A DNA stretch of 64,000 bases from a bacterium. GTDB lineage: Bacteria; Krumholzibacteriota; Krumholzibacteriia; LZORAL124-64-63. Under the pieces are notes generated by a model that ran no database searches, was not told where the DNA came from, and saw only the letters and a list, made by a program, of their open reading frames with translations. Below are positions 9,538 to 17,498 of the stretch, one piece after another; the first letter of the stretch is position 1, and every line of letters begins with the position of its first letter. The stretch is taken from positions 128,001-192,000 of the forward strand of contig JANOEP010000010.1 in the NCBI GenBank assembly GCA_031441465.1, given 5' to 3'. The position numbers and the translations under genes are program-made.

Positions 9538-11397
9538 TCAGCGCCGCAGGGTCCACTGCAGACGCCAGCGCATCTCGCGCCCCGGGGCAGGCGCCAGCGG
9601 GGTGACGGCCGTGGTGTCGCCGGTGAGATTGCGCAGTTCGAGGCCCAGGTCCGCGCCGACCAGGCGGAACGAGCCCAGCAGGTGGTGCAGGGTGCGGGCG
9701 GGTACGTCGGTCCCGCCGCCGGGGAGCCAGGGATCCGACATCGCGCCGCGGTGCTCCAGGACGTAGCCCAGTTCGAGGATGCCGTCCTCGTGGAAGGCGT
9801 GGCGCTCCCAGAACACATTCAGCACGGCGGACCGCTCCGGCGGCAGGGCCAGCGGCGATCCGGCGCCGACGTCGGTCCCGCGCCAACTCGCCGTCGCCTC
9901 CCAGCGCAGCAGGCCGGCCAGCCGGACGGCCCGCGCGACGGCGACGGTCGCGGCCCAGCCCTCGAGTTCCACTTCGTTGGCCCAGCGACCGCTGCCCGCG
10001 CCCGGAGCGGCGGCGCGCCAACCGATGCCGTCGCGGAGCCGCCGCCACGTCGCGTCGAAGCGGACGGCGTGCCCGGCGAAGCGGCCGTCGGTGGCGAGCG
10101 TCGCCTCGGTGAGGTCCTCCCAACCCAGGCTGCGCGCGGGCAGCATGACGACGGTGCGGCTCCCGGAGAACACGCGCTCGGAGGTGTACAGCTCGTCCAG
10201 GCGCGGTGCCCGGCCGCCGCGGCTCAGCCCGAGCCACAACGGCCAGGCGGTGGGGCGCCAGGTCGCGCCGGCGTGCGGCGACCAGCCAACGTGTTCGTGC
10301 CAGCGGCCGGCACACTCGAGCCGCCAGTCGGGCGGCAGGCCGCCGTCGCGCGGCGACTCCCAGGAGAAGTCGCAGACCCCGTCGCGGCCGCTCTTACCGA
10401 CGCGCGAGGTGTCCGCCCCCGCCCAGGCCGCGGTCCCGGACGCATCGTCGGCCAGTCGCCAGGACGCCACCTGGGCGCCCAACCGCCAGGCGGCGCGGCC
10501 GAGTTCCAGTCGGGCGCCGTCGCGGGCCGTCTCCACCTTGCGGTCGTCGTCCCCGATCTCCCGCACCACGTCCACGCGCGAGGACCACAGGCCGGCGCTC
10601 CATTCGCCACCGCCCCACGGTTGGCGCCAGTGCGCGGTGGTCCGGTCCCCCCACGTCTCCTGACGCTGCGCGCCGTACCGGGGCAGGTCGGTCAGATGAC
10701 GACGGTCGCGGGCGTAGCCCACGACCAGGGTCGACGTGTCGGGGAAGCGGCGGACCAGGGTCGTGCGGGTCAGGCGCGATCTGCTCTCGGCGGCGCCGGT
10801 GCGCGTGCTCCCGTCTTCGGGCAACTCGTCGAGCAGTTCCTCGAAATCGAAACGCCCCTCCCAAGGCGCCTGCTGGGTGCGCAGGGAGAGCCGTCTCAAA
10901 TAAGTGTCGCCGGCCCCCTTGAAGAAGGCGCTGTCCAGCAGGCTGCCGCCGGTATCCGCCGGGCAGGATTCCCAGGCGAGCCGAGGCGAGCCGCCGCCGC
11001 CCGGGTCCTGGGCGAACCCGACCCGCGCGAGGTCCGCGCCGGCCAGCGACCACGTCCAGGGATCGTCGGCCCAGCGATGGCCGAGACCCAGCGGCAATCC
11101 GTCCCGGACGGCCGACGGGACGCCGTCGTCCCCGGGCAGGTGCAACAGCAGCAGGGGCGCGCCCGGCGCGCCGTCGCGCACCGCGACCAGCGGCGAACTG
11201 CGCCCCAGCAGGTCCATGACATCGCCGGCGAAGGGCACCCACGGCGTGCGCGAACCGGGCGGCGACTCGGCCAGCGCCGCCGAGCGGACGCCGGCCGGCG
11301 CGACGGCCTGCGTGAAGGCGCACGAGGCGGCGATGGCGTTCCACGCGAGCGCCGCCGCGCCGTACCGCAGCAGCAGGCTCAAACGGCCGCGCGTCAT
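9538..11397 (-). CDS. Outer-membrane beta-barrel protein, TonB-dependent-receptor/porin-like
   Basis: Signal-peptide-like N-terminus, Trp-rich alternating strands, RAPRLDELY and ELRNLTG...GREMRWRLQW resembling TBDR C-terminal motifs. ATG 11397 overlaps the hutI stop. Confidence 0.6.
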   Translation of the reverse strand: MTRGRLSLLLRYGAAALAWNAIAASCAFTQAVAPAGVRSAALAESPPGSRTPWVPFAGDVMDLLGRSSPLVAVRDGAPGAPLLLLHLPGDDGVPSAVRDGLPLGLGHRWADDPWTWSLAGADLARVGFAQDPGGGGSPRLAWESCPADTGGSLLDSAFFKGAGDTYLRRLSLRTQQAPWEGRFDFEELLDELPEDGSTRTGAAESRSRLTRTTLVRRFPDTSTLVVGYARDRRHLTDLPRYGAQRQETWGDRTTAHWRQPWGGGEWSAGLWSSRVDVVREIGDDDRKVETARDGARLELGRAAWRLGAQVASWRLADDASGTAAWAGADTSRVGKSGRDGVCDFSWESPRDGGLPPDWRLECAGRWHEHVGWSPHAGATWRPTAWPLWLGLSRGGRAPRLDELYTSERVFSGSRTVVMLPARSLGWEDLTEATLATDGRFAGHAVRFDATWRRLRDGIGWRAAAPGAGSGRWANEVELEGWAATVAVARAVRLAGLLRWEATASWRGTDVGAGSPLALPPERSAVLNVFWERHAFHEDGILELGYVLEHRGAMSDPWLPGGGTDVPARTLHHLLGSFRLVGADLGLELRNLTGDTTAVTPLAPAPGREMRWRLQWTLRR

Positions 11398-12722
11398 CGC
11401 GACACCAACCGGCGGCCGTCGCGCCACACCTCGCGCACGGGATTGCGCCCGGCGTGGTAGGGCACCAGGCGGTGGTCGTCGACGTCTAGCACCAGGAAGT
11501 CGGCGGCGCGGCCCGGCGCCAGCGAACCGACTTCGTCCTGGAGACCGAGCGCCCAGGCGGCGTTGATCGTGCAGGCGGCCAGCGCCTCGGCCGGCGTCAG
11601 GCGCATCTGGGTGCAGGCGATGGACTGGATCAGGGGCACCGACGCGATCGGGCAGCTGCCGGGGTTGAAATCGGTGGCCAGGGCCACGGCCACGCCCGCC
11701 TCGATCATCGCCCGCGCCGGCGCGTAGCTGCGCAGGCCCAGCGAGAAGACCGTCCCGGGCAACAGCACCGCCACGGTCGGCGCGCCCGCCAGGGCGGCGA
11801 TGCCCGCGGCGTCGATGCGGATGAGGTGGTCCGCCGAGTCCGCTCCCAGCCGCGCGGCCAGCGCCGCGCCCCCGAACGGCTCCAGTTCGTCGGCGTGGAC
11901 GGTCGCGCGCAGGCCGAGTTCCTGCCCCCGTCGCAAGATCGTCGCGGTCTGTTCGAGGTCGAAGACCGTCGGCTCGCAGAAGACGTCCAGCCGCTCGGCC
12001 AAGCCCTCGCCGACGATCCGCGGCAGGATCTCGTCGCAGACGAGCTTGACGTAATCCCCACGGCGGTCCCGGTACTCGGGAGGCACCTCATGGGCGGCGA
12101 GGCAGGTGCGGACCACCCTCAGGCCGACCGTGCCGGCCGCTTCCCCGGCGATGCGGAGCATGCGGGCTTCATCATGATATGACAAACCATATCCGCTTTT
12201 AATTTCTATGGTTGTTGTTCCATGTTCAAGTACTTCACGAAGTCGCGCCACGGTCAGATCCAACAAGTCGTCATCGCTGCGCGCTCGTAGGTCCCGCACC
12301 GAGGACTGGATGCCGCCTCCCGCTGCGGCGATCTGCAGGTAGGTCTCGCCGCGTAGGCGCCGCTCGTACTCGTCCTGCCGGGTCCGGCCGAACACGGCGT
12401 GGGTGTGGGGATCGACCCAGCCGGGCACGACGCAGCGGCCGCCGGCGTCGTGGACGGCGCGCGGTGCGCCGCATCGGGCCAGCAACGCCGCTTGCGGTCC
12501 GTAGGCCAGCACGCGCCCGCCGGCCACGGCGAGCGCCGCCCCGGCGACCAGGCCGGGATCGTCGAGGTCGGCGCCGCGTCGGGGACCGGCGCTCGCCGCT
12601 CCCGGGCCTGGTCGGCCCGGCGCATCCAGCGTGCACAGCTGGCCGATGTTCTGCACCAGCAGGTCCGGCCCCGCCGCCAGGGCGGCGTCGTTTTCCGTCA
12701 CGACGCGGTCGATCGTGGTCAT
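11394..12722 (-). CDS. hutI: Imidazolonepropionase
   Basis: PGWVDPHTH, GGGIQSSV, GTTTIEIKSGYGL, DVFCE, HADEL, SADHL, ALATDFNPGS. ATG 12722 follows AGGAG. Confidence 0.95.
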   Translation of the reverse strand: MTTIDRVVTENDAALAAGPDLLVQNIGQLCTLDAPGRPGPGAASAGPRRGADLDDPGLVAGAALAVAGGRVLAYGPQAALLARCGAPRAVHDAGGRCVVPGWVDPHTHAVFGRTRQDEYERRLRGETYLQIAAAGGGIQSSVRDLRARSDDDLLDLTVARLREVLEHGTTTIEIKSGYGLSYHDEARMLRIAGEAAGTVGLRVVRTCLAAHEVPPEYRDRRGDYVKLVCDEILPRIVGEGLAERLDVFCEPTVFDLEQTATILRRGQELGLRATVHADELEPFGGAALAARLGADSADHLIRIDAAGIAALAGAPTVAVLLPGTVFSLGLRSYAPARAMIEAGVAVALATDFNPGSCPIASVPLIQSIACTQMRLTPAEALAACTINAAWALGLQDEVGSLAPGRAADFLVLDVDDHRLVPYHAGRNPVREVWRDGRRLVSR

Positions 12723-12724
12723 CG

Positions 12725-17498
<4,774 letters not shown>

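Follow-up and report, generated by a model that had tools for sequence, protein, structure and literature searches.

The 64-kb window analysed here (the whole stretch of 64,000 nucleotides at positions 128,001 to 192,000 of the forward strand of contig JANOEP010000010.1, C10 below, in the Krumholzibacteriota assembly GCA_031441465.1) carries on its minus strand hutI, the gene for imidazolonepropionase, and within hutI lies a 26-codon island of rare, mostly A/T-ending codons. The island is real and native, it occupies one fixed position in the gene, and its composition is held despite turnover, with no conserved motif. The surrounding genome comprises 3.49 Mb in 74 contigs at 69.6% G + C (GC), and the window itself has a GC content of 72.5%. 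The identity of the host gene is secure: its product scored 437 bits against the TIGR01224 profile (cut-off 298), matched the Bacillus subtilis HutI structure 2BB0 with E = 2.3e-97, and gave an AlphaFold model with a mean predicted local distance difference test score (pLDDT) of 94.2.

Over the 78 bases of the island the GC content is 0.36, and the next-lowest 78-base span of the window reaches 0.50; the island remains the lowest-GC span of the window when measured over 40, 60, 78 or 100 bases. As a first-pass annotation of this DNA had reported, 23 of the 26 codons end in A or T, 24 of the 70 bases at 12171-12240 are G or C, and nothing comparable occurs elsewhere in the window. GC at third codon positions (GC3) is 0.15 in the island vs 0.91 across the remaining gene, and no other part of hutI is lower. 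To score such dips, each hutI gene was compared with its own amino-acid-specific codon use in a 27-codon window (Poisson-binomial test); here 4 of 27 codons were GC-ending against 24.2 expected (P = 1.4e-26). Genome-wide we found 375 low-GC 60-mers, of which only four lay between GC3-rich flanks in a coding-like frame; the hutI island was the most extreme of these. The genome's one other strong in-gene island, described below, lies outside the window.

The island codons are also rare in this genome. Among 784,491 codons the synonymous share was 0.5% for ATA, 1.8% for ACA, 1.5% for TCA, 1.5% for GTA, 1.8% for CTT and 0.020 for ATT, and the geometric mean share over the 26 island codons was 0.063. 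Every island codon can be decoded by the genome's tRNA set, in which the U34 tRNAs for A-ending codons (Thr-UGU, Gly-UCC, Lys-UUU, Glu-UUC, Val-UAC and Ser-UGA) are single-copy. ARAGORN found 51 tRNA genes in the whole genome, including a tRNA-SeC (anticodon TCA).

In the AlphaFold model the island encodes the end of helix 150-166, strand 169-175, the active-site SGYGL loop and the first turn of helix 182-199, and so spans one beta-alpha crossing of the HutI barrel. The loop includes Tyr178, whose B. subtilis counterpart Tyr152 we take to be an active-site residue with a catalytic role. A second reading frame over the island was rejected: all five other frames contain stops, and an out-of-frame ATGATG start, noticed on reading the sequence by eye, is specific to this genome. 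The features of the locus are collected in Table 1.

Table 1. Coordinates of hutI, the island and features within it (positions in the window).
Feature	Position	Strand	Basis or remark
hutI (imidazolonepropionase), host gene	11394..12722	-	442 codons plus stop; stop-free translation; TIGR01224 equivalog
AT-rich rare-codon island, codons 160-185 (RLREVLEHGTTTIEIKSGYGLSYHDE)	12168..12245	-	GC3 dip, rare codons, present in congeners
Island core, codons 168-180 (GTTTIEIKSGYGL)	12183..12221	-	Part common to bearers from different lineages
Codon TAT, Tyr178	12189..12191	-	Aligns with Tyr152 of B. subtilis HutI (2bb0_A, offset 26)
Sigma-70-like match TTAAAA-17-TATCAT, 9/12	12174..12202	- (hutI sense strand)	Single match; genome-specific, outside the conserved feature

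Apart from its odd composition, nothing argued for an assembly or binning chimera, which the first-pass annotation had raised as a concern. Positions 11400-12900 are covered by single contigs of 6,024 and 8,888 bases from two runs, both labelled freshwater sediment metagenomes, at even depth and with 0 differences. The assembly may have been built from these very runs, in which case they are not independent of it. Among six congeneric species genomes five have hutI, and all five, assembled independently, carry the island in frame, as do two metagenome contigs of the genus. In the bearers of this genus GC3 is 0.26-0.41 in the island vs 0.90-0.97 in the remaining gene, and the borders are sharp and alike throughout. 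The gap-free contigs and the in-frame island of the congeners rule out a chimera, to which we attach a negligible probability.

Recombination with a low-GC hutI donor, perhaps through the co-conversion tract of a homing intein or intron, could likewise produce an AT-rich segment that then decays towards high GC. The sharp borders, the location over the most conserved motif and the amino-acid differences inside the island are what such an event might leave. Nevertheless, the sequences nearest to the island are those of the congeners, at 74-88% nucleotide identity; outside the genus, no match exceeds 65%. No close sequence was found among the low-GC hutI genes sampled (other hutI loci L002-L183), and searches of plasmid and phage collections returned no match to the island, which moreover encodes the genus-specific residues SYHDEA. 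An intein or homing insert was rejected because none of 36 HutI relatives of 775-2210 aa carries an insert at the motif, these longer proteins being fusions with HutU, HutH or FTCD domains (proteins of 450-775 aa lay outside the screen).

The changes within the genus point the same way. Between congeners an A/T third base was kept as A/T in 81% of cases in the island vs 28% in the flanks. In comparison with the sister genus (L006) the values were 42-71% in the island and 3-25% in the flanks; the flanks are thus near saturation, and the island has been kept by both genera. Parsimony on a flank-based tree of seven sequences, a rough procedure that probably underestimates the flank AT-to-GC rate, counted 10 changes from GC to AT within the island and 17 from AT to GC, the corresponding numbers for the remaining gene being 120 and 21. 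Per GC site, GC-to-AT changes amounted to 1.21 in the island vs 0.32 in the remaining gene, approximately fourfold more; had the island followed the flank rate, 2.6 such changes should have occurred (P = 0.0004). The equilibrium GC3 that follows from these rates is 0.43 in the island and 0.69 in the remaining gene. A decaying relic would show the flank rate, so the island is being replenished. With congeners as nearest relatives, genus-specific residues, no donor and no one-way return to GC, the donor patch suggested by the first-pass annotation is very improbable, and the island is neither a misassembly nor foreign DNA.

We then asked how widely the dip occurs in a sample of hutI DNA from relatives, named genome records and metagenome contigs; no conclusion depends on G102, G142 or G219. 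At the island codons, a GC3 dip reached P < 0.001 in 14 of 143 non-identical hutI genes and P < 0.05 in 21. When the test was slid along 136 genes, significant dips piled up only in windows starting at codons 139-172 (up to 14 genes, seven of them outside the genus); any other position had at most five. On a protein tree built without the island columns, on which gains and losses are indistinguishable, the strong dips need six state changes, at least five of which are forced by well-supported branches. Dips at the island position therefore occur in at least five separate Krumholzibacteriota lineages. In contrast, hutI genes from two other phyla, used as controls for amino-acid effects (without locus L205), had no dip at P < 0.001 in 29 genes on the Gemmatimonadaceae-record side or in 30 on the Blastocatellia-record side, and 2/29 and 1/30 at P < 0.05, about the chance level. 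The island is a feature of some Krumholzibacteriota lineages and not of hutI generally. The first-pass annotation had held that a low-GC3 patch conserved in the hutI of close relatives would speak for function; the alignment does show the patch conserved and, on that reasoning, supports one.

Two further kinds of dip were seen elsewhere in the gene. L066 and L071, both from Candidatus Aminicenantes records, share a separate GC3 dip at hutI codons ~313-334 (P < 1e-3 in both, < 1e-5 in one). The last 27 codons (415-441) dip at P < 0.001 in 5 of 132 main-set genes and 4 of 29 Gemmatimonadota-side genes, which may be an end-of-gene effect.

Within the island, composition is maintained and sequence is not. 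The inverted repeat AACCATA (12185)/TATGGTT (12207), the palindromes ATCATGAT (12171) and AAGTACTT (12228), and the minus-strand TTGTCA-N17-CATGCT (12185-12157) were all confirmed at the places given by the first-pass annotation. However, the repeat and both palindromes are present in one of seven genus sequences, and the TTGTCA element in two. These counts bear on the idea that the island is a DNA element: either a promoter, internal or antisense, or a place in the GC-rich chromosome where a nucleoid-associated protein with a preference for AT-rich DNA binds or nucleates. The island is indeed the most AT-rich stretch of the window, and this genome has one sigma-70-like match on the sense strand vs none in shuffled sequences. 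There is also a precedent, in that AT-shifting synonymous recoding created intragenic transcription starts in GC-rich mycobacteria, according to a preprint (Hegelmeyer et al., 2023; PMC10055193). That system resembles hutI in having A/T-ending synonymous codons within a gene of a GC-rich bacterium; the mycobacterial changes were engineered, whereas the natural hutI bearers have no conserved promoter-like match. Sigma-70-like matches were found on the sense strand of 4 of 21 bearers, in three different places, and on the antisense strand of none, and the match in this genome is absent at its place from the other six genus sequences. Of the downstream genes, for which the first-pass annotation had suggested an internal promoter, the next one starts ~750 bases further on and also follows hutI in island-free relatives, and an asymmetry of C over G on the sense strand is not expected of a duplex feature. 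Nor does the island lie near any GC-skew switch: the cumulative GC-skew minimum of contig C10, a possible replication-related switch, is at ~65,700, outside the window and ~75 kb away, which does not fit a suggested link to a replication origin or terminus. We consider a DNA element improbable.

A site recognized in the RNA is about equally improbable. Such a site could be an entry point for an endoribonuclease, or a small RNA (sRNA) or RNA-binding protein could act there to set the life or translation of hutI mRNA. In its favour, G is depleted on the sense strand: the four-fold sites of the genus island hold 34 A, 32 T, 19 C and 4 G (4/89), vs fractions of 0.47 C and 0.47 G in the remaining gene. 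Some codons also recur across 12 lineage representatives (T170 is ACA in 11 and E173 is GAA in all 12, and the third base is A/T at G177 in 11 and at L180 in 10), and at these four columns the island-free sequences have an A/T ending at a frequency of 0.10-0.33. Consistent with an open site, no stable fold was detected, the 131-nt island RNA folding no better than shuffles (z = +0.86). Measured against a Rho-utilization (rut) site, which is C-rich, G-poor and unstructured over ~80 nt, the island RNA lacks structure and has few G at third positions, but overall C (0.21) is not above G (0.24) in strong bearers. On the other hand, third positions vary freely, Rfam had 0 matches up to E = 1 over 11000-13200, and a blastn-short search of the genome itself found no complementary stretch longer than 14 bases; the 14-base match to the AT core had E = 1.1, and matches fell mostly in the GC-rich flanks. 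A further point in favour of an RNA site is that the Gly codons G168 and G177, which flank the core 27 bases apart, are both GGA in five of six genus sequences (the G005 copy has GGA and GGT), a spacing considered for CsrA. CsrA genes occur in 23 of 24 family genomes, island-free ones included, and are missing from the island-bearing G034; CsrA presence thus fails to track the island, and a CsrA site was rejected. In all, we found no conserved promoter, RNA family or RNA structure.

The position of the island within hutI has a compositional background. GC at first and second codon positions (GC12) is lowest, by 27-codon window, in a window starting at codons 150-179 in 96 of 136 hutI genes, bearers or not, so the island falls on the stretch of hutI where the amino acids force most A/T at the first two positions. 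AT-richness that reinforces itself as a general process was nevertheless rejected, as GC3 still averages 0.95 over ~12,500 windows sampled from the genome whose GC12 is below 0.50. The island is thus specific to the gene and does not reflect a general property of AT-rich codons.

The second in-gene island of this genome lies at 213630-213722 (-) of contig C10, outside the window and 73 kb from the hutI island, in a gene for a 295-residue TPR-repeat-like protein (identified by reading its sequence). Its core has a GC3 of 0.42 vs 0.89; all six congeners keep it (0.48-0.71 vs 0.90-0.94), and it is absent from two other genera of the family, where GC3 is 0.97 and 0.87. Here, too, the amino acids are shifted towards AT-coded residues.

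These observations bear on a non-adaptive local equilibrium, in which the force that raises GC3, codon selection or GC-biased gene conversion, is inactive over 26 codons, or the mutation rate is raised there; third positions would then lie close to the balance set by AT-biased mutation, and the island would have no function. High synonymous turnover with no third position fixed beyond composition would be expected in that case, as would a raised GC-to-AT rate with AT-to-GC change not lowered, and a drift of first and second positions and some amino acids to A/T. The TPR-gene island of the same genus likewise shows changes toward AT-coded residues, and the overlap with the lowest-GC12 window of the gene fits as well. 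Yet the many genome windows of equal or lower GC12 hold a GC3 near 0.95, and the 3.5-Mb genome has only two strong islands although dips at the hutI site have arisen or persisted in at least five separate lineages. The borders are, moreover, sharp and identical across the genus, and we know of no process that disables conversion bias or codon selection over 78 bases. Local equilibrium is the main rival to the interpretation we favour; it is possible, if rather unlikely, and it leaves recurrence at the hutI site unexplained.

Our tentative preference is that selection keeps a rare-codon, low-structure patch that acts in cis on hutI mRNA during translation. We infer both selection as the cause and an effect on elongation rate. 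The 26 codons would be decoded slowly, as most of them depend on wobble or on U34 tRNAs with a single gene copy, on RNA that is predicted to be G-poor and unstructured at the island. The ribosome exit tunnel holds 30-40 residues. Slowing at the island would thus come when residues to ~140 (the N-terminal beta-sandwich half, the first barrel strand, which bears the HxH metal site, and the helical insert) are exposed, and might tune HutI folding or yield. The first-pass annotation had inferred a second code overlaid on the coding sequence; a constraint or process beyond the protein code is upheld, given that relatives keep the patch, and the promoter and donor-patch forms of that idea are not.

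Several observations weigh against a translational role. T-ending codons share their tRNA with the C-ending ones, so that slow decoding is not assured for ~10 of the 23 A/T-ending codons. Third positions differ between congeners in 26-50% of island codons vs 8-28% in the flanks, and AT-to-GC changes in the island are no rarer than in the flanks; fast turnover and unreduced AT-to-GC change are equally compatible with weak compositional selection and with a neutral local equilibrium. GC12 is also lower, at 0.48 in strong bearers vs 0.54 in island-free high-GC3 genes, and this shift of first and second positions is more than pure selection for codon rarity requires. The excess of C over G rests on few alignment columns in seven related sequences. 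Lastly, the trait is patchy: 115 of 136 hutI sequences have no dip, so conservation is not family-wide; 41 sampled genes with GC3 above 0.85 lack the island, and so do close relatives, among them L036 and L118, and all 59 control genes of the two other phyla. The HutI fold thus does not in itself require a pause at the island.

A broader interpretation is suggested by the coincidence of the island with the GC12 minimum and by the genus-conserved TPR island. The hutI island could be a lineage-specific regulatory nucleic-acid signal in the active-site codons (ribonuclease entry, protein or sRNA docking, or a transcriptional element) and an instance of an undescribed general rule in GC-rich bacteria, by which AT-rich signals sit on the conserved motif that already forces most A/T, the cheapest place for them. 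We regard this as doubtful, though less so than a DNA element or an RNA site taken separately.

The translational interpretation can be set beside conserved rare-codon clusters, which are position-specific and mostly inside domains (Chaney et al., 2017, PLoS Comput Biol; PMC5438181). The likeness to these clusters is close: codons rare in the host and synonymous are used beyond chance, at the same alignment position across species and within a domain, and rarity rather than identity is kept. The hutI island differs from them in being far more extreme than usual (23/26 codons; GC3 0.15 vs 0.91), in being limited to some lineages of one phylum rather than family-wide, in covering the active-site motif, and in the shift of first and second positions and some amino acids to A/T, so that composition may be what is kept. 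Judged by the rarity, clustering and position of its codons, the hutI island is a conserved rare-codon cluster, for which an effect on translation speed or folding is predicted. There is a further parallel in high-GC genomes. In Streptomyces, the very rare A-ending codon TTA makes expression depend on the scarce, regulated bldA tRNA. The hutI island shares with this system rare A-ending codons in a high-GC genome; it differs in that many codon types are involved, as opposed to one codon type and a regulated tRNA, and we know of no regulated tRNA for the island codons.

The surroundings of hutI were also examined. The gene stands outside any hut operon, with hutU and two hutH-like genes on other contigs. 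Upstream lies a DinG-like helicase gene (12725-15445, -), followed further upstream by ligA and an Omp85-like gene. Coupling of hutI to the DinG-like gene is tight, the helicase stop falling within an AGGAG-containing stretch (12722-12745), 5 bases before the hutI start. Downstream are a 629-codon frame (9538-11427, -) and then a ComEA-like gene. The 629-codon frame had no Pfam match and has a signal- or lipoprotein-like N-terminus; in one subclade of relatives, hutI is followed by a homologue of this frame whether or not the island is present. A link of the island to the 629-codon or the DinG-like gene was rejected, because both also adjoin island-free hutI and distant bearers are without them.

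For annotation, the hutI case is a warning not to take such islands for foreign DNA or misassembly. If selected, the island would be among the cleanest natural rare-codon clusters, being 26 codons long and sharply bounded, with GC3 falling by 0.76. Its host enzyme is soluble and of known structure, and close island-free relatives offer natural controls, so the long-debated role of internal rare-codon clusters in folding, yield or RNA fate could be tested there by synonymous recoding. If non-adaptive, it would mean that the force raising GC3 can fail over 78 bases and stay failed across speciation, which would bear on the debate over whether selection or biased conversion makes high-GC genomes.

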